DNA of 64,000 nucleotides. Origin: Escherichia coli. GTDB lineage: Bacteria; Pseudomonadota; Gammaproteobacteria; Enterobacterales; Enterobacteriaceae. Made by a program: the position numbers and the translations under genes. Numbering within the stretch: position 1 is the first letter of the stretch; each line of letters opens with the position of its first letter. The notes under the pieces are model-generated. The model did not search any database, was not told the origin of the DNA, and was given only the letters and a program-made list of their open reading frames with translations. The stretch is taken from the NCBI RefSeq assembly GCF_050920415.1, contig NZ_CP169309.1, one strand, 5' to 3'. This document shows positions 14,664-61,099 of the stretch, piece after piece.

Positions 14664-16232
14664 TTAGCGTGCCGGCTGAGTAGTCGTGGAAGACTGCTCA
14701 AAGTGATAGCGACCGGTTTTCAGGCTGCTTGGGCCGAGGCGTGCAAACTTGAACATCAAGAACAATTCTGCCACCAGGAACAGGGTATACAGGCCACAAA
14801 TCAGCACCATCGAGAAGATGAGGTCGCCTGCGGTCAGTGACGAGTTCGCTACAGCTGTCGGCAGCACTTCACCGATAGCCCAAGGTTGGCGACCATATTC
14901 AGCCACGAACCAGCCCGCTTCTACAGCAATCCACGGCAGCGGAATACCGTACAGTGCGGCGCGCAGCAGCCATTTTTTCTCGCCAATACGGTTGCGGATG
15001 ACACTCCAGAAAGAGAGCGCGATGATTGCCAGCAGCAGGAAGCCACACGCCACCATGATACGGAACGCGAAGTACAGCGGCGCTACACGTGGAATGGAGT
15101 CTTTGGTTGCCTGTTGAATCTGCGCTTCAGTCGCATCCGCCACGTTTGGCGTGTAGCGTTTCAGCAACAGACCGTAACCGAGGTCTTTCTTCATGCTATT
15201 GAACTGGTCACGAACCGCCTGGTCAGTAGACCCAGAACGCAGTTGCTCGAGCAGAGAGTACGCCTTCATCCCGTTACGGATGCGTTCTTCATGCTGCACC
15301 ATCAGCTCTTTCAGGCCGATAACCGGGGTATCCACGGAACGCGTTGCAATGATGCCCAGCGCGTAAGGGATCTGGATCGCAAATTTGTTCGTCTCCTCTT
15401 CCTGATCAGGAATGCCGAACAGAGTAAAGGCAGCAGGTGCAGGTTGCGTTTCCCACTCGGCTTCAATAGCAGCCAGTTTGGTTTTCTGCACGTCGCCCAT
15501 TTCATAACCAGATTCATCACCCAGAACAATAACAGACAGAACGGCAGCCATACCGAAGCTGGCAGCGATAGCAAAGGAGCGTTTAGCGAAGGCGAAGTCA
15601 CGACCTTTCAGCATATACCATGCGCTGATACCGAGGATGAACATCGCGCCAGTCACATAACCAGACGCTACCGTGTGAACGAATTTCACCTGAGCAACCG
15701 GGTTAAGCACCAGCTCGGAGAAGCTCACCATCTCCATACGCATAGTTTCAAAGTTGAAATCGGACGCGATTGGGTTTTGCATCCAGCCGTTCGCAACCAG
15801 AATCCACAGCGCGGACAGGTTTGAACCGAGCGCCACCAGCCAGGTGACACACATATGCTGAACTTTACCCAGACGATCCCAACCGAAGAAGAACAGACCT
15901 ACAAAGGTGGATTCGAGGAAGAAGGCCATCAGACCTTCGATTGCCAGCGGCGCGCCGAAAATATCCCCTACATAGTGGGAATAGTAAGACCAGTTAGTCC
16001 CGAACTGGAACTCCATGGTCAGACCGGTTGCCACACCCAGAGCGAAGTTGATACCAAACAACTTGCCCCAGAACTTGGTCATATCTTTATAAATCTGTTT
16101 GCCGGAAAGGACGTAGACCGTTTCCATAATGGCCAGCAGGAACGCCATACCGAGCGTCAGTGGCACAAAAAGGAAGTGGTACATCGCGGTCAAGGCAAAC
16201 TGTAAGCGCGACAGTTCGACTATATCTAACAT
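14664..16232 (-). CDS. cydA: Cytochrome bd-I ubiquinol oxidase subunit I
   Basis: Match to CydA; start at the second Met of the track ORF ([15 protein letters not shown]...). Confidence 0.95.
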
Positions 16233-16568
16233 CATGACTCCTTGCTCATCGCATGAAGACTCCGAGAGTGAACCCCGTTAGAAAGGGTCACACGCATGCC
16301 CCAATACAAAATTATTTGCTCGCCTCTATCGCTGCCTTTTCCTCAAAAGTGGAAAAGACAATGATAAAAAGTTACAAATATGTTAATGAATAAACCAAAT
16401 TGATCCCGTAATTATATTACGCCGCAAAATCCTTACAATAAACAGGTTTTTATTGAGCAAATTTGCATTTTTCGACAGTGATCAATTTATAGCGAAATTG
16501 TCACGACCTCACCAATTTGATCTACGACAATTTATCGTGTTTTGCAGATTTTTTTCAAGAATTAAAAA

Positions 16569-16582
16569 TTGATTTATATCAA
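16569..16582. promoter_or_regulatory. FNR/CRP-family half-site palindrome in the cydA upstream region
   Basis: Perfect TTGAT-TTAT-ATCAA about 335 bp upstream of the cydA start, in a roughly 800-bp AT-rich leader/promoter region. Confidence 0.55.
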
Positions 16583-17035
16583 AACCAATCAAATATGTTA
16601 ATTATGTATAAACCATAGACCATTGGTAATTTTATTGTTAATTTATTGTGAAATATTTATGTAACACAATTATTACAATAAAAAGACATAGATAAAAAAC
16701 CAGTGTTTTATTTAACAGAATCGCCTTATCAACTTTTTATAATACCAATTGATTAGAGTAGCCAATTTGTTGCTATTTTACATAACATATTTTTATCAAA
16801 GTTAATTGATTGTTGCCTTTATGAGCATCGCCGTAAGACCGCCATGTTATTGTTTCATTTGTAATAATCACCAATAAGTATCGATGAGAGAGATATCGCT
16901 TAACAGAGGCGACTGTGTCTGCATGAACACAGGCAACTTTCGCCTGATAAACGAAAAATGAGCGATTTTTGCAAGTTAGTTTTTCTATAGCTGGGTACGC
17001 TGAGCGCCTCGCTTGATTACAATGAGGTTGCTGCC

Positions 17036-17980
17036 ATGGGTCTTGATAATATAGGTTCTGTTGTCAATCGCTTCTCTGGTTGGCCATCAAATGATCCTCT
17101 AAAAACAGATAACGAATCAATGACATCACCCGTGACTGTGCAGGTAATAAAGTTGATTGCCGCCATCCTTGACCCACATCGGATAGTCGTTGGTATCGAT
17201 ACACTCTATACAACGCAGCGCAAAACATTTACCTCAGAGGGTCAACAACTCATTGAATCAGCATTGAAAACACTTAATGTGATGAATTTAAATAACCTGG
17301 AAACAGATCGCGATGAGGAGGGTAACTATCTGGCTTTTGGATATAACGTTGACACTCCTGACAGAATAACCGTTTCTGCTTATAATGAAAAAAAACCTTT
17401 CTGTTATGGCCAATGTCTTTTAATACAGGATGAAGAACCAGATTTATTTAACCTGGTAAAAATTAAAACCTTTGAAGCCAGGCATAATTATGTTTCTAAA
17501 TTGATGAGCGATCCGGAATTTATGTTTAAATTCAGTTATAGCGCCCAACAAAATAGATTAGAACCTCATCTTCTGGTTCCCACTTATTTCCCTCTGAAAA
17601 CAAACCAACCGGTTACGCTAGAGGATTTACTGATACTTTATCGTTTCTTTAAAATGAATGGCGATTTTAATATATTAACATCAGATGAATACATGAGTAT
17701 CATGACACCTCTGATGAAGTGTGAGCGTAGTGTCCACGACCATAACAGGTATGTGACGGGCAAAGATGCTCTTCTTCTGGACAATCCTCCGTCTGGTAAC
17801 CAGATATATTTCCATATTTCCCCTGACGAATCAGCAACACTTGTCCTTTATTTTTCAGACAATAACCTTGAATCCTTCGTCTTTGAAAATGATATTCCGA
17901 GCCAGTATCGACATTTCAAAATGTTTACCAATTTAGCACTAGTTATTGATCAGTTAACCGACGCCAATCAAATACTTTAA
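17036..17980 (+). CDS. Hypothetical protein, 314 aa, acidic, no recognised domain
   Basis: Clean ORF with GAGG RBS 8 nt upstream of the ATG; strongly AT-rich codon usage (N/K/I/F/Y-rich) unlike the flanking core genes; no signal peptide or TM segment evident. Confidence 0.6.
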   Translation: MGLDNIGSVVNRFSGWPSNDPLKTDNESMTSPVTVQVIKLIAAILDPHRIVVGIDTLYTTQRKTFTSEGQQLIESALKTLNVMNLNNLETDRDEEGNYLAFGYNVDTPDRITVSAYNEKKPFCYGQCLLIQDEEPDLFNLVKIKTFEARHNYVSKLMSDPEFMFKFSYSAQQNRLEPHLLVPTYFPLKTNQPVTLEDLLILYRFFKMNGDFNILTSDEYMSIMTPLMKCERSVHDHNRYVTGKDALLLDNPPSGNQIYFHISPDESATLVLYFSDNNLESFVFENDIPSQYRHFKMFTNLALVIDQLTDANQIL

Positions 17981-18059
17981 TTTTCTATACAGCCCTGTGT
18001 AAAATATTGCTAAACAGTGCCCGGGGTTGATTTTTATTCCTCACGGTGATATTTAAATC

Positions 18060-18482
18060 ATGACACCATCTCAGCTCTCTTTTAATACTCTTCCTGTCAA
18101 TGCAACATGCACTTCAGAGATAACAGTAAACACACAAAAATTCTCTGACATCCTCTACTCAGTGGGGTATTCCCTAAAGGATCTGGCTTATCTGAGCAGA
18201 TGTCTGGCATCATTACACCCAACACTCGCCAAAAACATTTATGAAACGGAAAATCTCAGCGATCAAAAATTACTTTATATAGATTGCCGTAGTACAAATG
18301 AAATCAAGATAAATATATTTTTGGGTCAAAAAAGAGAAGAATTAATCGAAATTAGTTCTGATACAGTCATTTTTTCGATACTGTCTTCATTGATTGACTC
18401 AGCTATTTCTGAACATCGACATCAAATCACCGTTAATGATTCAAATAATTCTGAACTATTTTATGAGGATTATACTGATTAA
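18060..18482 (+). CDS. Hypothetical small acidic protein, 140 aa
   Basis: ORF 80 bp downstream of the previous gene, same strand and same AT-rich composition; about 21 acidic versus 10 basic residues; Ser/Thr/Asn-rich N-terminus. Confidence 0.5.
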   Translation: MTPSQLSFNTLPVNATCTSEITVNTQKFSDILYSVGYSLKDLAYLSRCLASLHPTLAKNIYETENLSDQKLLYIDCRSTNEIKINIFLGQKREELIEISSDTVIFSILSSLIDSAISEHRHQITVNDSNNSELFYEDYTD

Positions 18483-19024
18483 ATCCACTCTGTGCGAACC
18501 TGTCCTGCATTTATGCCAGAAGTATTAGAATCTTTGCTTAACGTTACTCATACAGTAGCACCTTCATGTGTCTCTCTTTTTTACGAACAATCAAAAGAAC
18601 TAACAAGGGGCATAATTCGTATAAATTATTAACCATTTGTTATATTCAACATTTTTTTACATTAAGCAGAGATGAATTGCAGTGAAATTCAAGTTAAATT
18701 TTACGAAATGTATTACTCATGGCTAAAAAATCTTCCCAAAATGCAAATTAGAAGTTGATCACAATTATCTCAATCCATCAAATCAAGATAATTTTAAAAA
18801 TTTAACATCAATGACAGCGGTTGGCATAACACACTGAATTAAAATGAAAATTTAAAAAACAATTTTTAAACAATCATTTCCCGAAAGACATTTTGAAAAT
18901 AGATCAATTGCAACATTACGGTCAGATAAAGACACTCCTCTGATATTAAACCTGTGCCGTTATGAACGGCCATAAATACGACGTGTGTAACTTAATTTAC
19001 TCTCTGTCTTACAAAGGATTACCC

Positions 19025-19474
19025 ATGAAGAAAGCAACACTTGTGATTGGCGTTATTGGCGCGGACTGCCATGCAGTAGGCAATAAAGTTCTGGACCGCG
19101 TTTTTAGCAACCATGACTTCAGAGTCATTAATCTGGGCGTAATGGTCAGCCAGGACGAATATATTGATGCTGCCATTGAAACTGGCGCTGACGCGATTGT
19201 CGTCTCCTCTATCTATGGGCATGGCGATATCGACTGTCTGGGCATGCGCGAACGCTGCATTGAGCGTGGCTTGGGGGACATCCTGCTCTATGTGGGCGGC
19301 AACCTGGTGGTCGGAAAACATGACTTCGCTGACGTGGAAACCAAGTTCAAAGAGATGGGATTTGATCGCGTCTTCGCCCCAAGTCATGACTTAGAAGATG
19401 TCTGCCAGCTGATGGCCCACGATATCAACCAACGTCATGGCGTTGAAACTTGCATTCTTGAAGAGGCAATCTGA
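19025..19474 (+). CDS. glmS: Glutamate mutase sigma (S) subunit, B12-binding (methylaspartate mutase small subunit)
   Basis: [24 protein letters not shown]... carries the DxHxxG cobalamin-binding motif and resembles clostridial GlmS/MutS end to end; symbol is glutamate-mutase nomenclature, not GlcN-6-P synthase. The track ORF is extended 21 codons upstream. Confidence 0.85.
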
Positions 19475-20862
19475 TGCAAATCGTCTCTGTCGATATTGGA
19501 TCGACGTGGACCAAAGCAGCCCTCTTCACCCGGGAGGGGGACGCGTTAACGTTGGTTAACCACGTTCTGACCCCAACCACCATCCATCATCTGGCAGAGG
19601 GATTTTTCTCCAGCCTTAACCAGGTGTTAAACGTAGATAATGCCCTCCCCCTGTTAAACCGCGGTGAGGTTGCATTGAAGTATTCCTCTTCTGCCAAAGG
19701 TGGGCTGGCGGTTGCCGCAATGGGAATAGTGCCTTCTATCACTCTGGAAACCGCGAAAGTAACCGCTCACTCTGCAGGTGCTAAAATTGCGCAATATTAC
19801 TCCTACAAGCTGAACCGCCGTGATATCCAGGCACTAGAAGAAACGCAGCCCGATATTCTCTTGTTCACCGGCGGCACCGACGGCGGAGAAGAAAGCTACG
19901 GACTGAATAACGCCCGTGTGCTGGCAGAATCCAAACTCGACTGCGCCATTATTTATGCCGGAAACCGGGATATTCAGGACAAGGTGCAGGAGACCCTCGG
20001 GCATAAAGACCTGACCATCGTCGACAACGTTCTGCCCGATCTTGACCATCCGAACCCTTTAGCTGCACGCCAGGCTATCTGCGACATATTCCTTAAACGC
20101 ATCGTTAAAGGGAAAGGGCTGGATGTCATTGTTGATAAAACAGGCGAAGAACCAATGCCGACACCATGGACGGTCTTTGAACTGGTGAAGGCAATCAGTA
20201 ACGTCGATCACAGCTGGAAAGAGTTCATGCTGATCGACATGGGCGGCGCAACCACCGATGTCTATTCCGCCTGTGCCAACACGCTCTCGCCCGACACTGT
20301 TTTACATGGCGTACCGGAACCCTTCGTAAAACGGACGGTGGAAGGCGATCTGGGAATGCGCGTCTCGGCAATGGTGGTTGGTGAAAGTGCGAAAGAGTTA
20401 GTCAGTGTGAATTTTGCTCAGCAACCCGCACAGTTGGACGCTTTTTATCATTACCTCCGTCATCTAGTCGCTCATCCCGACTACTTACCCGCGAATGCAG
20501 ATGAAAAATATTTCGATACCGTCCTGGCCGGACTGTGTGTGGGTTATGCCACCGAAAGACATGCGGGCACCAAAAAAGAGGTCTGCACCTGCGTCGGCAA
20601 TGTCGATTTACAGATGGGACGTGACCTGACAACCGTGCGTAAAGTCGTGGGTTCCGGCGGATGGCTCTCGCGTGCCAGTCAGTTCGATATGCATCACTGG
20701 TTGAAATACCGCGAGTTAAACGACGACGGTAAACGCATTCTCTTACCGACCGAATTTGAATATTACCGCGATTCCCGGGGGCTATTACCACTGCTGGCAA
20801 ACGTCGCCAGAGTCGATCCGCTGGCCGCCGCGCGCACCAGTATTCAATGCTTAACCCTATAA
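19474..20862 (+). CDS. glmL: Glutamate mutase-associated component L (MutL/GlmL-like, predicted actin/hexokinase-fold ATPase)
   Basis: 462-aa ORF translationally coupled to glmS (TGATG) in the conserved S-L-E order; N-terminal DIGSTWTKAA ATPase-like motif. Confidence 0.7.
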   Translation: MQIVSVDIGSTWTKAALFTREGDALTLVNHVLTPTTIHHLAEGFFSSLNQVLNVDNALPLLNRGEVALKYSSSAKGGLAVAAMGIVPSITLETAKVTAHSAGAKIAQYYSYKLNRRDIQALEETQPDILLFTGGTDGGEESYGLNNARVLAESKLDCAIIYAGNRDIQDKVQETLGHKDLTIVDNVLPDLDHPNPLAARQAICDIFLKRIVKGKGLDVIVDKTGEEPMPTPWTVFELVKAISNVDHSWKEFMLIDMGGATTDVYSACANTLSPDTVLHGVPEPFVKRTVEGDLGMRVSAMVVGESAKELVSVNFAQQPAQLDAFYHYLRHLVAHPDYLPANADEKYFDTVLAGLCVGYATERHAGTKKEVCTCVGNVDLQMGRDLTTVRKVVGSGGWLSRASQFDMHHWLKYRELNDDGKRILLPTEFEYYRDSRGLLPLLANVARVDPLAAARTSIQCLTL

Positions 20863-20880
20863 CAATTAAGGCTGCAATCA

Positions 20881-22326
20881 ATGGAACTTCGAAATAAGAA
20901 ATTAACCCATGACGAATTCATGACCGAGCGGCAACAGGTATTGAAAACCTGGGAAACCGGCAAGGATGTTGAAAACTTTGAAGATGGCGTTAAATACCAA
21001 CAAACCATTCCTGAGCATAAACGCTTCTCTCTTGCCCTGCTGAAAGCAGACAAGGAAGGTAAAACCCTTAGCCAACCGCGCGCAGGCGTGGCGCTGATGG
21101 ACGAACACATCGAACTACTGAAAACACTACAAGAAGAGTGCGATCTGCTGCCGAGCACTATCGATGCATATACCCGTCTGAATCGGTACGAAGAAGCGGC
21201 TGTAGGGATTAAAAAATCCATCGAAGCCGGAACCTCTAAACTGAACGGTTTACCGGTAGTTAACCACGGCGTCGCAGCTTGCCGTCGCCTCACCGAAACT
21301 CTGCAAAAACCGCTACAGATCCGCCACGGCACGCCTGATGCGCGTCTGCTGGCTGAAATCTCGATGGCCAGCGGCTTTACCAGTTATGAAGGCGGCGGCA
21401 TTTCCTACAATATTCCGTATGCCAAGCGCGTAACGCTGGAAAAATCGATCCGCGACTGGCAGTACTGCGATCGTTTAATGGGGATGTATGAAGAACACGG
21501 GATCCGCATCAACCGCGAACCGTTTGGCCCACTAACGGGTACGCTAATCCCGCCGTTTATCTCGCACTCTATCGCAATAATCGAAGGCTTGCTGGCACTG
21601 GAACAGGGTGTGAAGTCTATCACCGTTGGTTATGGTCAGGTCGGTAGCCTGACGCAGGATGTTGCGGCGATCCAGTCTCTGCGGGAACTTGCACACGAAT
21701 ATTTTCAGAGCTATGGCTATACCGACTACGAATTAAGTACCGTGTTTCACCAGTGGATGGGAGGCTTTCCGGAGGACGAATCGAAAGCGTTCGCCATTAT
21801 CTCCTGGGGTGCTGCCGTCGCGGGGATGTCTGGTGCTACCAAAGTCATCACCAAAAGTCCGCACGAAGCCTGGGGCATCCCGACTGCTGCTGCCAACATT
21901 CAGGGGCTAAAAGCCTCCCGCCAGATGCTCAACATGGTCAACGAGCAGAAATTCCCGCCGTGCCCGGCGGTTGAACTAGAAATTGAACTGATTAAGAGCG
22001 AGGTTCGCGCTGTACTGAACAAAGTGTTCGAACTGGGCAATGGTGATATTGCGCGCGGTACGGTGCTGGCATTTGAAGCGGGCGTACTGGATGTGCCGTT
22101 TGCGCCAGCCGCCTGCAACGCAGGCAAAATTCTTCCGGTCCGTGACAACACCGGCGCGATACGCGTACTGGAAGCCGGAGCCGTTCCATTGCCAAAAGAT
22201 ATTCTCGACCTCCACCACGATTACGTTGCTGAACGCGCGCGCTTTGAAGGACGCCAACCGACATTCCAGATGGTTGTAGATGACATCAATGCTGTATCCC
22301 ACAGTAAATTAATAGGAAGACCATAA
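20881..22326 (+). CDS. glmE: Glutamate mutase epsilon (E) catalytic subunit
   Basis: 481 aa; long colinear similarity to clostridial GlmE/MutE (LSQPRAGVAL, PSTIDAYTR, NREPFGPLTGTL, FQMVVDDI...). Confidence 0.88.
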   Translation: MELRNKKLTHDEFMTERQQVLKTWETGKDVENFEDGVKYQQTIPEHKRFSLALLKADKEGKTLSQPRAGVALMDEHIELLKTLQEECDLLPSTIDAYTRLNRYEEAAVGIKKSIEAGTSKLNGLPVVNHGVAACRRLTETLQKPLQIRHGTPDARLLAEISMASGFTSYEGGGISYNIPYAKRVTLEKSIRDWQYCDRLMGMYEEHGIRINREPFGPLTGTLIPPFISHSIAIIEGLLALEQGVKSITVGYGQVGSLTQDVAAIQSLRELAHEYFQSYGYTDYELSTVFHQWMGGFPEDESKAFAIISWGAAVAGMSGATKVITKSPHEAWGIPTAAANIQGLKASRQMLNMVNEQKFPPCPAVELEIELIKSEVRAVLNKVFELGNGDIARGTVLAFEAGVLDVPFAPAACNAGKILPVRDNTGAIRVLEAGAVPLPKDILDLHHDYVAERARFEGRQPTFQMVVDDINAVSHSKLIGRP

Positions 22327-23567
22327 TGAAAATAAAACAGGCCCTTTTTACCGCTGGCTACTCCTCATTCTATTTCGATGATCAGCAGGCGATAAAAAAC
22401 GGAGCGGGTCACGACGGCTTTTTTTATACCGGAGAGCCGGTAACACAGGGGTTTAACGCCGTACGTCAGGCCGGGGAGTGCGTTTCGGTTCAGTTGATTC
22501 TGGAAAACGGTGCGGTCGCCGTAGGCGACTGTGCTGCCGTACAGTATTCCGGGGCAGGCGGTCGCGATCCACTGTTCCTCGCAGAGCACTTTATTCCGTT
22601 CCTCAACGACCATATCAAGCCATTACTGGTAGGCCGCGATGTGGATGCTTTCCTGCCGAATGCCCGTTTCTTCGACAAATTGCGTATTGACGGAAACTTG
22701 CTGCATACCGCCGTACGTTATGGATTATCACAGGCGCTGCTTGATGCTACCGCGCTGGCAACCGGCCGTCTAAAAACTGAAGTGGTCTGTGATGAATGGC
22801 AGTTGCCACGCGTGGCGGAATCCATTCCATTATTTGGTCAGAGCGGAGACGATCGATATATCGCTGTCGATAAGATGATCCTTAAGGGCATCGACGTGCT
22901 ACCTCATGCGCTGATTAATAACGTCGAAGAGAAACTGGGCTTTAAAGGAGAAAAACTGCGCGAATATGTCCGTTGGCTATCCGATCGGATTCTAAGCAAA
23001 CGCACCAGCGCACGCTACCACCCTACCCTACACATCGATGTATACGGCACTATTGGTCTGATCTTCGATATGGATCCGCTTCGCTGTGCGCAATACATCG
23101 CCAGTCTGGAAAAAGAGGCGCAAGGCCTGCCGCTCTACATTGAGGGGCCGGTCGATGCCGGTAACAAGCCCGATCAAATCCGCCTGCTGACCGCGATTAC
23201 CAAAGAGCTGACGCGCCTCGGTTCCGGCGTGAAAATTGTGGCCGATGAATGGTGTAACACCTACCAGGATATTGTTGATTTCACTGATGCCGCCAGTTGC
23301 CACATGGTGCAAATCAAAACCCCGGATCTGGGCAGTATTCACAACATCGTCGATGCAGTTCTTTATTGCAACAGCCACAGCATGGAAGCGTACCAGGGCG
23401 GCACCTGCAATGAAACCGATGTCAGCGCCCGCACGTGTGTCCACGTCGCCCTTGCCGCTCGCCCCATGCGTATGCTGGTAAAACCGGGGATGGGCTTTGA
23501 CGAAGGCCTCGATATCGTCTTCAACGAAATGAATCGTACTATCGCGCTGTTGCAGGCTAAGGATTAA
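22326..23567 (+). CDS. mal: 3-methylaspartate ammonia-lyase (beta-methylaspartase)
   Basis: 413-aa enolase-superfamily protein of typical MAL length; start overlaps the glmE stop (TAATG). Confidence 0.85.
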   Translation: MKIKQALFTAGYSSFYFDDQQAIKNGAGHDGFFYTGEPVTQGFNAVRQAGECVSVQLILENGAVAVGDCAAVQYSGAGGRDPLFLAEHFIPFLNDHIKPLLVGRDVDAFLPNARFFDKLRIDGNLLHTAVRYGLSQALLDATALATGRLKTEVVCDEWQLPRVAESIPLFGQSGDDRYIAVDKMILKGIDVLPHALINNVEEKLGFKGEKLREYVRWLSDRILSKRTSARYHPTLHIDVYGTIGLIFDMDPLRCAQYIASLEKEAQGLPLYIEGPVDAGNKPDQIRLLTAITKELTRLGSGVKIVADEWCNTYQDIVDFTDAASCHMVQIKTPDLGSIHNIVDAVLYCNSHSMEAYQGGTCNETDVSARTCVHVALAARPMRMLVKPGMGFDEGLDIVFNEMNRTIALLQAKD

Positions 23568-23570
23568 CAA

Positions 23571-24941
23571 ATGGCTCGTTCTTTTAAAGTCTTATCGCCA
23601 ACGGCAATCCTCGGGTATGGATTCCCGGAAGAGAGCTTCCGCAAAGCGATGGCAGAATCGCCCGATCTGATCGCCGTTGATGCAGGATCTTCCGATCCAG
23701 GTCCCCACTACCTCGGGGCAGGCAAACCGTTTACCGATCGCGCAGGGGTCAAGCGCGATCTGCGCTATATGATCACCGCAGGCGTGCAAAATAATATACC
23801 GGTGGTGATCGGAACGGCCGGCGGTTCTGGTGCCGCTCCACACCTGGAGTGGTGCCGAGAAATAATTCATGAGATTGCCCGGGAAGAGCGCCTCGCGTTC
23901 TCGATGGCGCTGATCCCGGCAGACGTTGACAAAGCCATCGTCCACCAGGCGCTGGATAACGGCAAAATCACGGCGCTGGATTTTGTCCCGCCGTTAACCC
24001 ACGACTCGATTGACGAAAGTACGTATATCGTCGCGCAAATGGGCATCGAACCCTTCCAGCGGGCGCTGAAAGAAGGAGCGCAAGTGGTGCTGGGCGGGCG
24101 CGCTTACGACCCGGCCTGCTTTGCTGCGCTTCCGATCATGCAAGGCTTTGATGAAGGTCTGGCACTGCATTGTGGGAAAATCCTTGAATGTGCGGCAATC
24201 GCTGCAACACCCGGCTCAGGCTCTGACTGTGCGATGGGCATCATTGATGACAACGGCTTTACGCTGAAGACGTTTAATCCGAAGCGTAAATTTACCGAAA
24301 CGTCAGCTGCTGCACACACACTGTATGAGAAATCCGATCCCTACTTTCTGCCAGGACCTGGCGGCGTGCTAAACCTGAAAGGTTGCACATTTAAAGCGAT
24401 CAATGATGGCGAAGTGTACGTCAGCGGTTCTAAGCATGAAGAAACGCCCTATGCCCTGAAACTGGAAGGTGCGCGGCGGGTGGGTTTCCGCTGTTTGACC
24501 ATCGCCGGAACGCGCGACCCGATCATGATCGCCGGGATCGATAACATCATCGATGAAGTCAAAACCAGCGTTTCGCGTAATCTGTCCTTAGACGATGACA
24601 GCATTCGCATCAATTTCCACCTGTACGGCAAAAACGGGGTGATGGGTGACCATGAACCGATGCAAACTGCCGGGCATGAGCTGGGGATTGTCCTTGATGT
24701 AGTTGCACCGACCCAGGAAATTGCCAACAGCGTTTGCTCGCTGGTGCGCTCTACCATGCTGCACTACGGCTATGAAAACCGCATCGCTACCGCAGGCAAC
24801 CTGGCGTTCCCGTTCTCCCCTTCTGATATCCAGGGCGGGCCGGTATACGAATTTTCCATATATCACCTGATTGAAGCCAACGACGCTCTGCGTTTTGATT
24901 TCCATATTGAACAGGTGACGCCAGAAGGAGTTCAGGCATGA
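23571..24941 (+). CDS. Uncharacterised protein, probably DUF1446 (AtuA-like) family
   Basis: 456-aa soluble protein inside the operon, 4 bp after mal; family assignment is from memory of the AtuA-like family and is tentative. Confidence 0.5.
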   Translation: MARSFKVLSPTAILGYGFPEESFRKAMAESPDLIAVDAGSSDPGPHYLGAGKPFTDRAGVKRDLRYMITAGVQNNIPVVIGTAGGSGAAPHLEWCREIIHEIAREERLAFSMALIPADVDKAIVHQALDNGKITALDFVPPLTHDSIDESTYIVAQMGIEPFQRALKEGAQVVLGGRAYDPACFAALPIMQGFDEGLALHCGKILECAAIAATPGSGSDCAMGIIDDNGFTLKTFNPKRKFTETSAAAHTLYEKSDPYFLPGPGGVLNLKGCTFKAINDGEVYVSGSKHEETPYALKLEGARRVGFRCLTIAGTRDPIMIAGIDNIIDEVKTSVSRNLSLDDDSIRINFHLYGKNGVMGDHEPMQTAGHELGIVLDVVAPTQEIANSVCSLVRSTMLHYGYENRIATAGNLAFPFSPSDIQGGPVYEFSIYHLIEANDALRFDFHIEQVTPEGVQA

Positions 24942-25255
24942 AACAGTCAATTGTCTCACTGGCGCAAGTCATTCGTTCGAAAAATGCCGGACCTTACGAA
25001 CTGGTTTTAGATATTTTATTTAAAACGAAAGAAAACTATGAGCGAGTAAAATCATCAGGGCAATTAACCCCAGAACTGATTGCGCGCTTATATCATGTTG
25101 AACCTGACTTTATTCATCGTATTGTCTGGTTTGATCCTTCTAACGCAGTAAAAATTGTCATGCCACGAGATATTATCTCCGGGAATGTAGGTGACAATGA
25201 TGTCTATGGCGCACAGCAACATGCACCTTTATTAAATATGAGTTTCGATTTGTAA
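24938..25255 (+). CDS. Small uncharacterised protein, probably DUF4387-like partner of the preceding gene
   Basis: 105-aa ORF overlapping the upstream stop by 4 nt (ATGA coupling). Confidence 0.5.
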   Translation: MKQSIVSLAQVIRSKNAGPYELVLDILFKTKENYERVKSSGQLTPELIARLYHVEPDFIHRIVWFDPSNAVKIVMPRDIISGNVGDNDVYGAQQHAPLLNMSFDL

Positions 25256-25341
25256 AAATCCGAACACTTTTAGCCAACTGACATCCCGTCACTTATTGCA
25301 GCTCAACACTTCAGCTATTTGTAAGGTTGTTATAGCAGGTA

Positions 25342-25367
25342 GATGCCTGAATCTCTATTCAGGCATC
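25342..25367 (+). promoter_or_regulatory. Perfect 11-bp inverted repeat (stem-loop or operator) between the DUF4387-like gene and the transporter gene
   Basis: gatgcctgaat-ctct-attcaggcatc; no downstream T-run, so not a classic intrinsic terminator. Confidence 0.4.
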
Positions 25368-25415
25368 CACTTCTCCTGATTCTGATTTATCGCCGTGCAC
25401 CTGATGGAGGAAAAA

Positions 25416-26696
25416 ATGAAGAAAATAAGTTTAACTACGATGATTCTTTTGGCGCTGGTACTTGGAATGATTATCGGCGTAGTGCTCAATAACACTGCTT
25501 CACCGGAAACAGCAAAACTCTATGCGCAAGAAATATCGATATTCACGACGATTTTCTTACGACTGATAAAAATGATTATCGCTCCGTTAGTGGTCTCTAC
25601 CCTGGTGGTAGGTATTGCTAAAATGGGCGATGCCAAAGCCCTTGGTCGTATTTTTTCTAAAACACTCTTTTTATTTATTTGCGCCTCATTGCTGTCAATT
25701 GCCTTAGGCTTGATAACGGTAAATTTCTTCATGCCAGGCACAGGAATTAATTTTGTTGCACACGGTGCCGAAACCACCGGAGTGGTCGCGTCAGAACCCT
25801 TTACACTAAAAGTATTTATTTCGCATGCTTTCCCCACCAGCATTGTCGATGCCATGGCGCACAATGAAATTTTGCAAATCGTGGTGTTCTCAATTTTCCT
25901 CGGCTGTAGCCTGACGGCGATTGGTGAGAAAGGCAGCGCCATCGTTCACGCCTTAGATTCGCTGGCACATGCCATGTTAAAGCTCACTGGCTACGTCATG
26001 CTCTTCGCTCCCCTGACCGTATTCGCCGCTATTTCAGCATTGATTGCTGAACGAGGACTGGCAGTTATGGTGAGCGCCGGGATCTTTATGGGTGAATTTT
26101 ATTTCACCATGTTATTACTTTGGGTGCTGCTTATCGGTCTGGCCATCGTTTATGTCGGCCCCTGCATCAGACGCCTGACCCGCGCCCTTTCAGAACCCGC
26201 CCTGCTGGCATTTACCACATCCAGTTCTGAAGCTGCTTTTCCGGGAACGCTTGAAAAACTGGAGCAATTTGGCGTTTCCCCCAAAATTGCCAGCTTTGTC
26301 TTACCCATTGGCTACTCATTTAATCTCGTTGGATCAATGGCCTACTGCTCCTTCGCCACAGTTTTCATCGCCCAGGCCTGCAATATCCATTTATCCATCG
26401 GTGAGCAAATCACCATGCTGTTGATCCTGATGTTGACCTCGAAAGGAATGGCTGGCGTACCACGCGCCTCAATGGTGGTTATCGCCGCCACGCTCAACCA
26501 GTTCAATATTCCGGAAGCGGGGCTGATCTTGCTGATGGGCGTTGATCCGTTCCTTGATATGGGGCGTTCCGCGACAAACGTCATGAGCAACGCAATGGGC
26601 GCTGCGATGGTGAGTCGGTGGGAAGGCGAACATTTCGGCGAGGGTTGTCGGGGTAAAGCATTAAAACCCAATGAATCGAACGTTGCTCTGCCCTGA
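25416..26696 (+). CDS. Dicarboxylate/amino acid:cation symporter (DAACS/GltP-DctA family)
   Basis: Polytopic membrane protein with an AFTTSSSEAAFP motif typical of the family; GGAGG RBS 5 nt before ATG 25416; the track ORF starts at an upstream GTG. Confidence 0.8.
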   Translation: MKKISLTTMILLALVLGMIIGVVLNNTASPETAKLYAQEISIFTTIFLRLIKMIIAPLVVSTLVVGIAKMGDAKALGRIFSKTLFLFICASLLSIALGLITVNFFMPGTGINFVAHGAETTGVVASEPFTLKVFISHAFPTSIVDAMAHNEILQIVVFSIFLGCSLTAIGEKGSAIVHALDSLAHAMLKLTGYVMLFAPLTVFAAISALIAERGLAVMVSAGIFMGEFYFTMLLLWVLLIGLAIVYVGPCIRRLTRALSEPALLAFTTSSSEAAFPGTLEKLEQFGVSPKIASFVLPIGYSFNLVGSMAYCSFATVFIAQACNIHLSIGEQITMLLILMLTSKGMAGVPRASMVVIAATLNQFNIPEAGLILLMGVDPFLDMGRSATNVMSNAMGAAMVSRWEGEHFGEGCRGKALKPNESNVALP

Positions 26697-26803
26697 GGGG
26701 GATCTTAAGCAATCAGAAGCCAATGACTACGCATTTTTATAAGCCGGATCATGAAGTTAGACGGCAATTAAGTAACACTAACGTTTAAGGTGAAAAGTGA
26801 AAT

Positions 26804-28456
26804 ATGTCCAAACCATTTATCTGGCAAGAACCGTTTCTACAAAATAAAGACGGTACAGAATATACATTAATTAGCGATCAACATATTACAGTAACGGAAT
26901 TAGACGGCGAAGAAGTGATAAAAATCGCTCCTGAAGCATTAACGCTGCTTGCCCGGCAGGCATTTTATGAAGCCTCTTTTTTCTTACGTTCCGCTCATTT
27001 GCAACAGGTCGCCAGCATTCTTAGCGATCCGCAGGCCAGTAGTAATGATAAATACGTTGCGTTGCAGTTATTACGTAATGCTGAAGTCTCAGCAAAAGGG
27101 GTATTACCCAACTGTCAGGATACCGGCACCGCAACTATTGTTGCCAGTAAAGGGCAACAGATATGGACGGGAGGTAACGACGCTGAAGCCTTAAGCAAAG
27201 GCATTTACAGTACTTTCCAGGAAAATAATCTGCGCTTTTCACAAAATGCGCCGCTGGATATGTATACCGAAGTCAATACGCAAACCAATCTCCCGGCGCA
27301 GATTGATATCAGCGCTGTCGCTGGTAATGAGTACCATTTTCTCTGTGTTAATAAAGGGGGCGGCTCCGCCAATAAAGCCGCGCTTTATCAGGAAACCAAA
27401 TCCTTATTGCAACCAGAAAAACTGACCGCGTTTTTAATCGACAAAATGAAATCGTTGGGCACGGCCGCCTGCCCGCCCTACCACATCGCCTTTGTCATCG
27501 GAGGGCTTTCAGCCGATCAAACCTTAAAAGTTGCCAAGCTGGCCTCTACGAAATATTACGACAATTTGCCCACCAGCGGAAACGAGCAGGGACAAGCATT
27601 CCGTGATATTGAGCTGGAAAAAGCGTTGCTCGAAGCCAGTCAGCAATTTGGTATTGGTGCGCAATTTGGGGGTAAATATTTCGCTCATGATATTCGCGTC
27701 ATTCGTCTGCCGCGTCACGGTGGCTCTTGCCCGATAGCTATGGCGCTCTCCTGTTCTGCCGATCGCAATATCAAAGCAAAAATTAACAAGCACGGTATCT
27801 GGCTGGAAAAACTCGAACACAATCCGGGGCAATATATTCCAGCCTCATTGCGGGAAGAAAATCACGCGCAACATGTACACCTGGATCTAAACCGTCCGTT
27901 GCGTGACGTGATGCAGGATCTCGCCAGATTACCGGTAGGTACCCGCGTGTCGTTAAGTGGTCCCATCGTAGTGGCGCGCGATATCGCCCACGCAAAAATA
28001 AAAGCGCGGCTGGATAGCGGCGAATCGATGCCGGATTACCTGAAGCATCATATTGTCTATTACGCTGGCCCGGCGAAAACACCGGAGAACATGGCCTGCG
28101 GTTCACTGGGTCCAACCACGGGCGGTCGAATGGACGGTTATGTCGAAACCTTCCAGGCGGCTGGCGGCAGTCTGGTAATGTTATCGAAAGGTAACCGCAG
28201 CCAGCAGGTCACCGATGCCTGTCACAAACATGGCGGCTTCAATCTGGGAAGTATTGGCGGTGCAGCTGCGTTACTGGCGCAAGAATATGTCAAAAGTCTG
28301 CGTTGCCTGGAATACCCGGAGCTGGGTATGGAGGCGGTGTGGATGATGGAAGTGGAAAATCTGCCCGCATTCATCCTGGTCGATGATAAAGGCAATAATT
28401 TCTTTAGTCAGTTTGAGCAGCAACACCGCTGCGCCAGTTGCCCTGCGGGACATTAA
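26804..28456 (+). CDS. fumD: Class I (Fe-S) fumarate hydratase paralogue, mesaconase-type
   Basis: 550 aa, colinear with FumA/FumB ([45 protein letters not shown]); the fumD name is by analogy to the O157:H7 mesaconase, as I recall it. Confidence 0.8.
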
Positions 28457-28465
28457 GGAAAATGA

Positions 28466-29068
28466 ATGGAAGCGCGAATTTCAACTGAACGGCATGTGCA
28501 GCGCCAGCAGAAATTGAAGGAACAGGTCGATACGCGCGTCGCGGCGGCGATAGAGAAAAAAGGGATCTTGATTGTTTTCACCGGCAACGGCAAAGGGAAA
28601 TCCACTGCCGCGTTTGGTACTGTGACGCGCGCGGTGGGTCATGGCAAAACGGTGGGGGTTGCACAGTACATCAAGGGGCAATGGGACAACGGCGAATACA
28701 ACCTTCTCCAGCCGCTGGGGGTTGAGTTTCATATTATGGGAACCGGTTTTACCTGGGAGACTCAGAACCGGCAAGCGGATATCGATGCGGCGAAAGAGGT
28801 CTGGTCGGAAAGCAAACGGATGCTGGCTGACAAGCGTTACGACTTAGTGGTGCTTGATGAGCTCACCTATATGCTGGCTTACCATTATCTGGATACAGAA
28901 GAAGTGATCACTTCTCTGCAAAACCGTCCGGCACAACAAAGTGTCATTGTCACCGGACGCGGTTGCCACAGTCAGATATTAAAAATGGCGGATACGGTAA
29001 GTGAAATCCGCCCCGTCAAACATGCTTTTGATAACGGCATTCAGGCCCAGCCGGGGATCGACTGGTAA
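28466..29068 (+). CDS. Cob(I)alamin adenosyltransferase (CobA/BtuR family) paralogue
   Basis: 200 aa with P-loop VFTGNGKGKST; colinear with E. coli BtuR. Confidence 0.85.
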   Translation: MEARISTERHVQRQQKLKEQVDTRVAAAIEKKGILIVFTGNGKGKSTAAFGTVTRAVGHGKTVGVAQYIKGQWDNGEYNLLQPLGVEFHIMGTGFTWETQNRQADIDAAKEVWSESKRMLADKRYDLVVLDELTYMLAYHYLDTEEVITSLQNRPAQQSVIVTGRGCHSQILKMADTVSEIRPVKHAFDNGIQAQPGIDW

Positions 29069-29071
29069 TAA

Positions 29072-29105
29072 CTGCGCCTGGCATCCCGCCAGGCGCAGGT
29101 TTTAC
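29072..29105. terminator. Bidirectional hairpin terminator between the cobA-like and LysR genes
   Basis: ctgcgcctgg-catcccg-ccaggcgcag with flanking T/A runs; lies between convergent stop codons. Confidence 0.6.
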
Positions 29106-30007
29106 ATCTCCTGCGGTACGACCGATTTCGCCAGCAACCATTCACGAAATTGCTGCAAGTGCGGAGAGTCAGACTTCTCTTCCTGCCACGTCATAATAAA
29201 ACGATTACCGGTACGAATAGGCACATCACAGGGGATCACCATATCGCCACTATCCAAATCATGTTGAATAGCGAACCGTGGTAACAGCGCCACGCCGAGA
29301 TTAGAGCGCACGGCGGCAATCAGCATTGAAAGCAAATCGAAACGTGGTCCGTTATTGACCAGCGGACTGCTAACGCCAGATAAAGCAAACCACTCTTCCC
29401 AGCCAGTAATACGGGTGCTTTGATGCAGAAGTGGTAACTCAGTAAGCAGTTCTGCCACTGACAGTTTTTGATCGGACATTGCAAGCAAACTGCCGCTGCA
29501 TACCGGCAAAATCTCCTCTTCAAAGAGATATTCTACTTCCGCCCAGGGCGCGCAAAAATTTTCGCGCATAATGACAGCATCGTACTCCCGATTAAGAAAA
29601 TCGCCGTTATTAGCTAAAGAATGAATATTAACAATAATATCGGGATGTAACTTTGTGAATTCATGTAAATTTGGGATTAACCAGTGGGTACTAAACGTAG
29701 GATTAACGGCAAGTTCAATAACCTGAACCGTAGGCTGCCAGGTCATAATCGTATTGGTATCGCGTTCCAGCTTATTTAATGTTTCTTTTACTATCCCCAG
29801 GTAATACTTCCCTGCATCATTAAGAAAAATGCGTTTTTTAGAGTGTGAAAATAACGGAGTATGTAAAAATTCCTCCAGCGCACTTACTTGTCTGAATACA
29901 GCACTTTGGGTTAACGCTAACTCCTCAGCCGCTCTGGTATAACTTTCATGTCGTGCGACGACCTCAAAAGTCACCAGCAGCTCCGTTTTAGGTATTTTTC
30001 CTCGCAT
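29102..30007 (-). CDS. LysR-family transcriptional regulator
   Basis: N-terminal helix-turn-helix (YTRAAEELALTQSAVFRQV) plus co-inducer-binding domain; start chosen at the internal Met (MRGKIP...), the track ORF extends to 30037. Confidence 0.8.
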   Translation of the reverse strand: MRGKIPKTELLVTFEVVARHESYTRAAEELALTQSAVFRQVSALEEFLHTPLFSHSKKRIFLNDAGKYYLGIVKETLNKLERDTNTIMTWQPTVQVIELAVNPTFSTHWLIPNLHEFTKLHPDIIVNIHSLANNGDFLNREYDAVIMRENFCAPWAEVEYLFEEEILPVCSGSLLAMSDQKLSVAELLTELPLLHQSTRITGWEEWFALSGVSSPLVNNGPRFDLLSMLIAAVRSNLGVALLPRFAIQHDLDSGDMVIPCDVPIRTGNRFIMTWQEEKSDSPHLQQFREWLLAKSVVPQEM

Positions 30008-30596
30008 AATGCCGTCCGTGAAAAAATAACAACTCAAAAATTATTTTATAAAAAACAGTAGCACTAATGAATATCATAATTCAAATAAACAAACCAGTCA
30101 GCTATATGTCTAACCAGGAAAATAAAGTGACAATAATCCTAAAACAGGAATTTCACCTCAGTTATCCGCATGCAATACTTTAAAGCTATTATTGCAAGAA
30201 TATTATTCATATACATGAATATACTCTAAATAAGTCAAGTTGCAGGAAGGGAACAAATAATGAATTTCCAGAAGCTTACATAAGTAAGTGACCTGGGTGA
30301 GCGAACATCGATGCAGCACATGCAACTTGAATTATGACAAGTATACAATGATAAATTTATATACCCTATGTTATATATTATCTATGTCCGGTTAAATTGA
30401 ATGAGTCATAGCCTTAAAAGACTTCACAAAAGATAATTCCTCTTTAACAATAAGCCAGATTTACCACTTGTAAAACTTGCTATCGCCACATACACTACGC
30501 GCGTTTTCTTTCCCTTTTGCTGGCTGCTGACCGGAAAGACAAAATTACCCTCGCAATACAGGGGGTTGTTTAACGTCTATATTTCAGGACAGCGTT

Positions 30597-31994
30597 ATGC
30601 ATCATCTTTTAAGGCTTGATAAAGCCTTTCTGCGCAAAGGGATCCAACTTTCCCGTGCCAACAATATTGTTTCATTATGTCGTCCATCAGGAGCCAGTGC
30701 CCGCGTACTGCTGCCGGACGAACTGCCGCTGGAAGAAAAAGCAGTGACACAACTGCTTGATTTTGCAGAAGTGAAGATACCAGGCCATCCAGGTTACGTA
30801 CGCCAGACGTGCGCGACGCCAGATTTTCATCCCGGCAATGGCGTCCCCGTTGGCGCGGTGGTGGCCTCAACGCCGGATTTAGTCATTCCCGCCGCCATCG
30901 GCACCGATATTTCTTGTGGCATGCGGCTGCTGACGACCGGATTAACACTTGAGCAAGCCGAAGCGCATAAAGACGTCATCGCTCAGCGGTTAACGCAAGT
31001 GCTACTGCAAAATGAGCGCGATGTTCCGTTATCCGCACAGGCGTTCACCGCGCTTTTTGATGGCGGACCGGCAGATTGCGTGTCGACCTTGCCATCAGCA
31101 GGTCTCTGGACACGCACGAATATCCCCCGAATGGTACAAGAGATTGACCGCTGCATTGGGCTTAACGAGCATAACAGTCATTCGCGTTATGCCCCACCCG
31201 CCCTGCTGGCAACGGACCGCGCATTACTCCGCGATCCTTGTCTGGGTACGCCGGGTTCAGGTAATCATTTTATTGAACTTCAGGTCGTTGATAGCGTGGT
31301 TGATCGCCATGTAGCCTGGCAACAAGGGCTGAAAACAGGCGATATTGTGGTGATGATCCACAGTGGATCGCGAGATGTTGGCTTTTACGTCGGAAGACGC
31401 TGGATGGATCGCGCCCGTGCTGAATGGCCCACCGGACATAAACATCCACAAAGCGGGTTATATGGTCTGGCAGGCGGACTGGCGGAGGAATATCTACAAG
31501 CGATAGGAATGGCGGCGCGTTACGCGTGGTTAAATCGCGTGACAATTGCCGAAATGGTGCGCGTATGTCTTGCCAATCTCTTTCATCAGGACAATTCGCA
31601 TCTGGTGGTGGATGTGCCACATAACATCATCCTTCGCGAGCATGAAATGAATATTCATCGCAAAGGCGCAACACCGGCACGAGTGGGCAATCTGGCGTTA
31701 ATCCCTGGTTCAATGGGCGATTATTCGTGGCTTGCGGTAGGTTGCGGCAACCCGGAGTGGCTGTGGTCATGCAGTCACGGAGCAGGACGCAGCCAGCGTC
31801 GGCAGGCCATGCGCTCACGCGCGACTGAAGAGTCAACGCTGCCGTGGCAATGCGTCACATTGCGCGAAGAACGACGTCTTGAAGAAGCGCCAGCGGCTTA
31901 TAAAGATATTGGTCCGGTTATCGAAGCTCAACAAGAAGCCGGATTAATTCAGCCAGCGGTCAGATTTCGACCGTGGTTAACGTTTAAAGCATAA
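30597..31994 (+). CDS. RtcB-family RNA ligase paralogue (3'-phosphate/5'-OH ligase)
   Basis: 465 aa with the RtcB signature blocks IPAAIGTDISCGMRL, GSGNHFIEL, MIHSGSRDVG, IPGSMGDYS and CSHGAGR; about 30-aa N-terminal extension relative to K-12 RtcB. Confidence 0.8.
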   Translation: MHHLLRLDKAFLRKGIQLSRANNIVSLCRPSGASARVLLPDELPLEEKAVTQLLDFAEVKIPGHPGYVRQTCATPDFHPGNGVPVGAVVASTPDLVIPAAIGTDISCGMRLLTTGLTLEQAEAHKDVIAQRLTQVLLQNERDVPLSAQAFTALFDGGPADCVSTLPSAGLWTRTNIPRMVQEIDRCIGLNEHNSHSRYAPPALLATDRALLRDPCLGTPGSGNHFIELQVVDSVVDRHVAWQQGLKTGDIVVMIHSGSRDVGFYVGRRWMDRARAEWPTGHKHPQSGLYGLAGGLAEEYLQAIGMAARYAWLNRVTIAEMVRVCLANLFHQDNSHLVVDVPHNIILREHEMNIHRKGATPARVGNLALIPGSMGDYSWLAVGCGNPEWLWSCSHGAGRSQRRQAMRSRATEESTLPWQCVTLREERRLEEAPAAYKDIGPVIEAQQEAGLIQPAVRFRPWLTFKA

Positions 31995-32091
31995 AAAAGG
32001 CCATCATATGATGGCCAACCATGTCGAAACCGACAGCCCTTCGCCATTCCTGTAGAGGGAAGCGGCGAGGGCTATTTCTTATTACAAGTAT
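31993..32091 (-). ncRNA. sdhX: 3'-UTR-derived sRNA SdhX (RybD) with the sucD terminator
   Basis: About 97 nt directly after the sucD stop, ending in the ggccatcat-atgatggcc hairpin plus U-run (31993-32016); assigned from position relative to sucD, sequence identity to K-12 not verified. Confidence 0.45.
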
Positions 32092-32961
32092 TTATTTCAG
32101 AACAGTTTTCAGAGCTTCACCGATGTCAGCCAGGCTGCGAACGGTTTTCACGCCTGCGGCTTCCAGAGCAGCGAATTTCTCATCCGCAGTCCCTTTCCCA
32201 CCGGCAATGATGGCACCCGCGTGGCCCATACGTTTGCCTTTCGGCGCAGTTACACCAGCGATGTAACCTACAACTGGCTTGGTAACGTGCTCTTTGATGT
32301 ACGCAGCCGCTTCTTCTTCAGCGCTACCGCCGATCTCACCGATCATCACGATCGCTTCGGTCTGCGGATCTTTTTCGAACATTTCGAGGATGTCGATAAA
32401 GTTAGAACCAGGGATCGGGTCGCCGCCGATACCGACACAGGTCGACTGACCGAAACCGTAATCCGTGGTCTGTTTAACCGCTTCATAGGTCAGTGTACCG
32501 GAACGGGAAACGATACCCACTTTACCCGGTTTGTGAATGTGACCAGGCTGGATGCCGATTTTACATTCACCCGGAGTGATAACGCCCGGGCAGTTCGGGC
32601 CGATCATGCGTACGCCAGCTTCGTCCAGTTTCACTTTCACCGTCAGCATATCCAGCGTCGGGATGCCTTCAGTGATGGTGATAATCAGTTTGATACCTGC
32701 GTCGATGGCTTCCAGAATGGAGTCTTTGCAGAACGGAGCCGGTACGTAGATAACAGAAGCGGTAGCGCCAGTGGCAGCAACGGCTTCACGCACGGTGTTG
32801 AACACCGGCAGACCAAGGTGGGTAGTACCGCCTTTACCTGGGGTTACGCCGCCAACCATTTTAGTGCCGTATGCAATGGCCTGTTCAGAGTGGAAAGTCC
32901 CCTGGCTACCAGTAAAGCCCTGGCAGATAACCTTGGTGTTTTTATCAATTAAAATGGACAT
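32092..32961 (-). CDS. sucD: Succinyl-CoA synthetase alpha subunit
   Basis: 289-aa match to SucD. Confidence 0.95.
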
Positions 32962-60893: not shown

Positions 60894-61099
60894 TTTGTTC
60901 TCCTTAATTATGTAAGGAGTATTTGATCATGTATAAGCAATAAAAAACAGCTTCAGGTAATGAGGAATATCTCAATTTTTAAACATAAAATGCGAATTAT
61001 TTAGTACAAAAAAGCAGCGTTAAGTGAGTAGGCCACCGGAACCTCCCCGACAGCCTCTCGCAGAACCGTACGTGAAACTCTCGCTTCATACGGCTCCCG

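Follow-up and report, generated by a model that had tools for sequence, protein, structure and literature searches.

CobA-type enzymes convert cob(I)alamin and ATP into adenosylcobalamin (AdoCbl) and triphosphate. The pdu and eut operons are B12-dependent catabolic operons, and each has its own adenosyltransferase and reactivase (PduO with the PduGH reactivase in pdu, EutT with EutA in eut), an arrangement that provides local recycling of damaged cofactor. E. coli has no de novo synthesis of B12, and because it makes no corrin ring the corrinoid must be imported. The gene cluster discussed here was described by Kronen and Berg in 2015 (PLoS One, PMC4682846), who characterized FumD biochemically and gave its frequency as 26.5% among E. 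coli and 90.6% among O157:H7 strains. None of the conditions that they tried led to expression of the O157:H7 cluster, cobalamin addition included, and they called it unclear what becomes of citramalate in E. coli (PMC4682846). The legend of their Fig. 5 labels "CobA, cob(I)alamin adenosyltransferase" and an LTTR. The CobA so labelled is the gene studied here, in this very cluster, and the paper does not characterize it. A literature search returned no paper characterizing the island CobA paralogue itself. FumD is ECs0757 in O157:H7 Sakai, and a search for expression data under the locus tags ECs0756-0763 and Z0896/7 gave nothing relevant; neighbouring tags go unmentioned. Island cobA is already known at the level of annotation, from the published cluster map and from RefSeq, where it is named cobO, cob(I)yrinic acid a,c-diamide adenosyltransferase (WP_000388209.1).

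The window that we analysed is a stretch of 64,000 nucleotides of E. coli chromosomal DNA, in which the cluster lies as a strain-variable island segment at about 16.3-32.0 kb, between cydA and sucD. K-12 has mngR-mngA-mngB at the same site (sucD/sdhX to cydA) in place of the glutamate mutase cluster. Therefore, the placement of cobA within an island, beside glmL, which the first-pass annotation had put forward, holds. The island genes are co-directional, in the order glmS-glmL-glmE-mal-AtuA-DUF4387-symporter-fumD-cobA, with cobA as the last. All are on the plus strand. The gene glmS (19025..19474; TIGR01501/NF002612, with the start from RefSeq) encodes the B12-binding subunit S of glutamate (methylaspartate) mutase, glmL (19474..20862) the reactivase-type accessory protein (NF040745 accessory_GlmL, 506 bits with a cut-off of 475), and glmE (20881..22326; TIGR01503, 865 bits) the catalytic subunit E, which shares 59% identity with the epsilon subunit of glutamate mutase in PDB 6H9E. 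The mutase subunits GlmS and GlmE and the accessory protein GlmL are all encoded in the same cluster as cobA. They are followed by mal for methylaspartate ammonia-lyase (22326..23567; TIGR01502, 544 bits), an AtuA-family (DUF1446) gene (23571..24941) and a DUF4387 gene (24938..25255), the last two named from RefSeq annotation and from Pfam labels in orthologous loci. Next come a GltP/DctA-like dicarboxylate/amino acid:cation symporter gene (25416..26696; NCBIfam matches below equivalog cut-offs, RefSeq) and fumD for a class I fumarase/mesaconase (26804..28456; NCBIfam NF011921, 1274 bits). A LysR-family regulator gene (29102..30007, minus strand; Pfam HTH_1 and LysR_substrate) is convergent with cobA, and its position is kept across genera. 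The cydA-side edge of the island is AT-rich (GC 0.33-0.39). Two ORFs at that edge, of 314 aa (17036..17980, +) and 140 aa (18060..18482, +), are both hypothetical in RefSeq, and the 314-aa ORF had no NCBIfam match.

Based on gene content and conservation, we consider the island gene to be most likely a functional second CobA-type adenosyltransferase, the last gene of the methylaspartate-pathway island, that supplies or regenerates AdoCbl for glutamate mutase; we put the probability of this reading at about 0.7. The gene itself, at 28466..29068 on the plus strand, corresponds to exactly one ORF in the ORF list, with an ATG and 200 codons, stop included. Its product was assigned as a CobA-type ATP:co(I)rrinoid adenosyltransferase of 200 aa, a cobA/cobO paralogue, on the basis of the ORF, the profiles and the alignment with 1G5R. 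It aligns with the whole of the Pfam profile PF02572 CobA_CobO_BtuR (positions 1-172 of 172), with an E value of 5.3e-64 and 216 bits, where the cut-off is 25.7 bits, and it scores 246 bits against the NCBIfam equivalog TIGR00708 cobA (curated cut-off, 168) and 295 bits against NF004637 (curated cut-off, 185). The match with the S. enterica CobA structures 1G5R/1G5T/1G64/4HUT is gapless (E value of 2.5e-88), with 68% identity to 1G5R over residues 2-196 and 0 gaps. The absence of a P-loop had been named beforehand as a refutation of this identity. The P-loop is intact, as GNGKGKST at residues 40-47 (28583..28606, +), read from the sequence and aligned to GNGKGKTT at residues 36-43 of S. enterica CobA, and it has the form GxGKGK(T/S)(T/S) expected for MgATP binding. 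The island ORF is, judged by these profile and structure matches, an intact member of the CobA/BtuR/CobO family, as the earlier reading of a BtuR/CobA-like adenosyltransferase at this place had it. Chance is excluded as the source of the ORF, profile, P-loop and island-location matches. A pseudogene or chance ORF, also considered as a candidate, was ruled out by the PF02572 and NCBIfam matches and by purifying selection.

The gene had also been called a paralogue, and here as well the sequence data agree. The housekeeping BtuR is 67% identical to island CobA, and carriers of the island have both copies. The BtuR locus is arranged as sohB|yciK-cobO|rluB. This yciK-btuR context is absent around island cobA, which sits after fumD in the sucD-cydA island, and because the context differs we regard the island gene as a paralogue and not as the housekeeping orthologue. 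BtuR is 89% identical to S. enterica CobA, whereas both are only 67-68% identical to the island copy, which indicates that the island copy is older than the Escherichia/Salmonella split. An NJ tree, built to tell duplication within Enterobacterales from transfer, joined the island-type and housekeeping proteins of enterobacteria to the exclusion of the 50%-identity representatives, but with weak bootstrap support (44-62%); this grouping would fit recruitment by duplication within Enterobacterales. The closest relatives of island CobA are 200-aa proteins with 82-86% identity in Citrobacter, Enterobacter, Salmonella and others, and the allele in the window is 98% identical to the O157:H7 allele. 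When matches by megablast were counted at an identity of at least 95% with at least 80% of the gene covered, island cobA was present in 1121 of the 5426 complete E. coli genomes (20.7%), compared to the 26.5% of E. coli reported for the cluster (PMC4682846). A sensitive blastn search found a btuR-type copy, with about 67% identity, in 5422 of the same 5426 genomes. Each of the listed island carriers has two such places, and the 6546 places in all fit one extra place per carrier; in the 1121 carriers the island copy is always additional to the btuR-type copy. One of the 1122 near-identical island cobA matches falls on a plasmid-classed record and not on a chromosome.

The signals around cobA suggest that it would share a transcript with fumD and that translation of the two is probably coupled. 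The stop codon of fumD (TAA) is at 28454..28456, and the cobA ATG begins 9 nt after it. A Shine-Dalgarno sequence, AAGGA (28455..28459, +; read from the sequence), overlaps the fumD stop and lies 6 nt before the ATG. This junction, 'gacattaaggag..ATG' with its 9-nt gap, is kept in Salmonella, Citrobacter and Enterobacter. Directly after cobA, before the convergent LysR gene, lies an intrinsic terminator-like hairpin (29072..29098, +) of 11 pairs, 9 of them G-C, followed by GTTTT, which is the strongest such site in 16200..32100. Further upstream there are intergenic gaps of 160 nt 5' of the symporter gene and 107 nt 5' of fumD, and given these gaps the cobA transcript may include glmSLE or fumD only. 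An Rfam scan of the whole window at the gathering threshold detected neither a cobalamin riboswitch nor any other RNA element that would control the island.

With the island expressed, CobA would raise the capacity of the cell to convert reduced cobalamin and ATP into adenosylcobalamin. The cobalamin would come either from import or from inactivated glutamate mutase after its release by GlmL. The GlmS/GlmE mutase may thereby stay loaded with coenzyme, and the extra adenosylation capacity would serve a highly expressed, inactivation-prone B12 enzyme. That the enzyme is active, is co-expressed with the pathway and serves glutamate mutase is inferred, and the most likely role of island CobA is AdoCbl supply or regeneration for glutamate mutase alongside the GlmL reactivase. 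The logic is the same as in pdu and eut, with an own adenosyltransferase and a reactivase next to the B12 enzyme. There are differences as well. PduO and EutT belong to protein families unrelated to CobA, whereas the island enzyme is a CobA-type paralogue, and the island encodes no dedicated corrinoid reductase (PduS-like). Because the activating enzyme and the reactivase adjoin the mutase, only the corrinoid would have to be scavenged. About one-fifth of E. coli (O157:H7 included), many Citrobacter, Klebsiella and Enterobacter and some Salmonella could thus run a B12-dependent conversion of glutamate to mesaconate/citramalate in the gut.

Synteny beyond E. coli points in the same direction. 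Salmonella enterica, Citrobacter amalonaticus and Enterobacter cloacae share the order glmL-glmE-mal-AtuA-DUF4387-SDF-(glutaminase)-fumD-cobA|LysR. Activity of methylaspartate ammonia-lyase has been reported for C. amalonaticus (Kato and Asano, as cited in PMC4682846). The glutaminase gene between the symporter gene and fumD is extra in these Salmonella, Citrobacter and Enterobacter clusters, and the E. coli island is without it (26697..26803). In the Salmonella and Citrobacter versions a SumT-like tetrapyrrole methylase gene and a PocR-domain AraC regulator gene lie beyond the LysR gene. A GlmE alignment was used to scan 100,044 species, each represented by a single genome, and 80 loci were examined together with flanks of 10 kb. 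Among these 80 loci, the cluster followed by the fumD-cobA pair is present in Escherichia, Citrobacter, the Klebsiella oxytoca group, Enterobacter, Lelliottia, Raoultella, Salmonella arizonae/diarizonae and Yokenella, and the shared gene order recurs in Klebsiella, Lelliottia, Raoultella and Yokenella. In Yersinia (three species) the pair is on the other side of the cluster and on the opposite strand, still as LysR-fumD-cobA, and adjoins a tetrapyrrole methylase gene and a GHMP-kinase gene. The test of operon linkage therefore found cobA encoded in, and conserved with, the glmSLE-mal cluster in Enterobacteriaceae and Yersinia. The dN/dS between genera is 0.03-0.06 (Nei-Gojobori), and by such measures the fumD-cobA pair is under strong purifying selection in Enterobacteriaceae and Yersinia. 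Synteny and dN/dS support the view that cobA is functional and under joint selection with fumD and the glm cluster.

Conservation is not complete. In Escherichia whittamii, cobA is reduced by two deletions to an internal fragment of about 100 bp (15842..15938 of locus L010). The deletions are equivalent to 28467..28834 and 28932..29040 of the window, and the flanking fumD and LysR genes are 86-89% identical to those of the window. This remnant is a natural knockout and can be used to address whether cobA is dispensable. Pseudescherichia vulneris and Escherichia sp. ESNIH1 have no cobA, and there fumD is directly followed by the LysR gene. Within 10 kb of the glm cluster, no CobA homologue was found in Morganella and Budvicia, nor in the sampled Firmicutes, Aminicenantes, Lentisphaerae, Spirochaetes and Betaproteobacteria. 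A rough motif search of all ORFs of the 80 loci found no PduO-type N-terminal motif either. The absence of cobA from the sampled clusters outside Enterobacterales and its loss in relatives indicate that it is an Enterobacterales-specific addition that is dispensable in some lineages. The first-pass annotation had called the gene dedicated to the pathway, and its interpretation is supported in part. The adjacency of fumD and cobA across genera and the low dN/dS speak for a tie to the pathway, but exclusivity does not follow, as btuR is nearly universal and cobA has been lost in relatives. "Dedicated" is too strong a word for a gene that is deleted or absent in some relatives and missing from every glm cluster sampled outside Enterobacterales.

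As the housekeeping btuR is nearly universal, the island copy may be redundant. It could be an active enzyme without a pathway-specific role that rides along with fumD, BtuR being enough for glutamate mutase. We consider this spare-copy explanation unlikely, although likelier than the other alternatives. In its favour, btuR is present in all but four of the complete genomes, cobA has been lost from clusters that are otherwise retained, and most glm clusters in nature are without an adenosyltransferase gene within 10 kb. It is hard to reconcile a neutral passenger, however, with a kept position and a dN/dS of 0.03-0.06 in genera that all have the housekeeping copy. In addition, the fumD-cobA pair stayed joined when it was rearranged in Yersinia.

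The protein retains the catalytic residues of its family. All family-invariant positions are kept in the alignment, namely, K39, K41, R51, F91, W93, E128 and R161 in S. enterica numbering, and Lys39 and Lys41 are invariant in every aligned family member. F95 and W97 of island CobA, in the motif TGFTWETQ, are the Phe91/Trp93 pair, kept throughout the 116 island-type orthologues and all representatives. Moore et al. are said to have reported in 2012 that this pair removes the lower ligand, leaving cob(II)alamin four-coordinate. The equivalents of R9, an Arg of the N-terminal helix (R13 in island CobA), and of D195 are both retained. Overall, S. enterica CobA and E. coli BtuR belong to the same family and length class as island CobA, align with it without gaps at 68% and 67% identity, respectively, and share with it the P-loop, the R9 equivalent, F91/W93, E128, R161 and D195. 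The island enzyme differs from them by four extra N-terminal residues, by S, T or A in place of Arg165, and by 27 differences fixed in its clade.

The position of Arg165 received most attention. According to Buan and Escalante-Semerena, reportedly in J Biol Chem in 2005, Arg165 of S. enterica CobA is critical for docking of the flavodoxin FldA, and R9 is said to be a docking arginine as well. The equivalent residue in island CobA is Ser169. In the Enterobacteriaceae clade the position holds S, T or A in 112 of the 116 island-type orthologues and R in none. The T42 position is fixed as Ser in 116 of 116 island-type orthologues. Such changes could point to a specialized variant that uses an electron donor other than FldA, hands AdoCbl over directly to GlmS/GlmL or prefers another corrinoid, and the 27 further positions that are fixed differently from the housekeeping pair would fit this. 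It seems improbable to us, however. Family-wide, several residues occur at position 165 (D, K, P, E and A in the 50%-identity representatives), the cluster-linked copies of Yersinia keep Arg, Ser at T42 is the family-wide majority state, and a search of island CobA for a partner-specific motif found none. We therefore downgraded R165S and T42S as marks of a specialized enzyme after the representative alignment, and we read them as ordinary divergence, because position 165 varies family-wide and Ser42 is the majority state. A more elaborate form of specialization is equally speculative. In it, the island-type CobA clade would be the cofactor-recycling partner of GlmL/GlmS, taking cob(II)alamin from inactivated mutase, using a non-FldA reductant and returning AdoCbl directly. 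If this were true, it would be the first CobA-family enzyme shown to be an enzyme-dedicated B12 chaperone, a role that to our knowledge is so far known for PduO-type enzymes. Finally, that the gene is non-functional or decaying is very hard to believe: cluster expression was not seen in O157:H7 (PMC4682846) and E. whittamii has the deleted remnant, but the frame is intact here, all 1121 E. coli matches have at least 80% coverage and at least 95% identity, purifying selection is strong, and the catalytic residues are all retained. We keep to the interpretation of a functional second adenosyltransferase that would supply glutamate mutase.

Some questions raised by the island have more weight than cobA: the inducer, the fate of citramalate and the role of AtuA/DUF4387. 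The AtuA (DUF1446) and DUF4387 genes form a pair directly 3' of the methylaspartate ammonia-lyase gene (23571..25255, +), and such a pair also follows mal in distant phyla, with examples in Aminicenantes, Lentisphaerae/Victivallaceae, Spirochaetales, Betaproteobacteria, Rifleibacterium and UBP9. Loci with the pair are L041, L046, L047, L049, L052, L057, L075, L078, L079 and L085, and the pair is absent from the sampled Firmicute glm-mal clusters. A literature search on DUF4387 found no paper. As a subject for follow-up, this pair is preferable to cobA. An RtcB-family RNA ligase-like gene of 465 aa (30597..31994, +) lies at the island's sucD-side edge. Its scores with NCBIfam RtcB are below the equivalog cut-offs, and its N-terminal part of about 210 aa is outside the best-matching stretch. 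The gene is absent at that position in the Salmonella, Citrobacter and Enterobacter versions. Elsewhere in the window, Rfam gave a group II intron match (RF00029, 62.8 bits) at 61023..61098 on the minus strand. A 417-aa ORF at 61100..62353 (-) adjoins this match and possibly encodes the intron-encoded protein.
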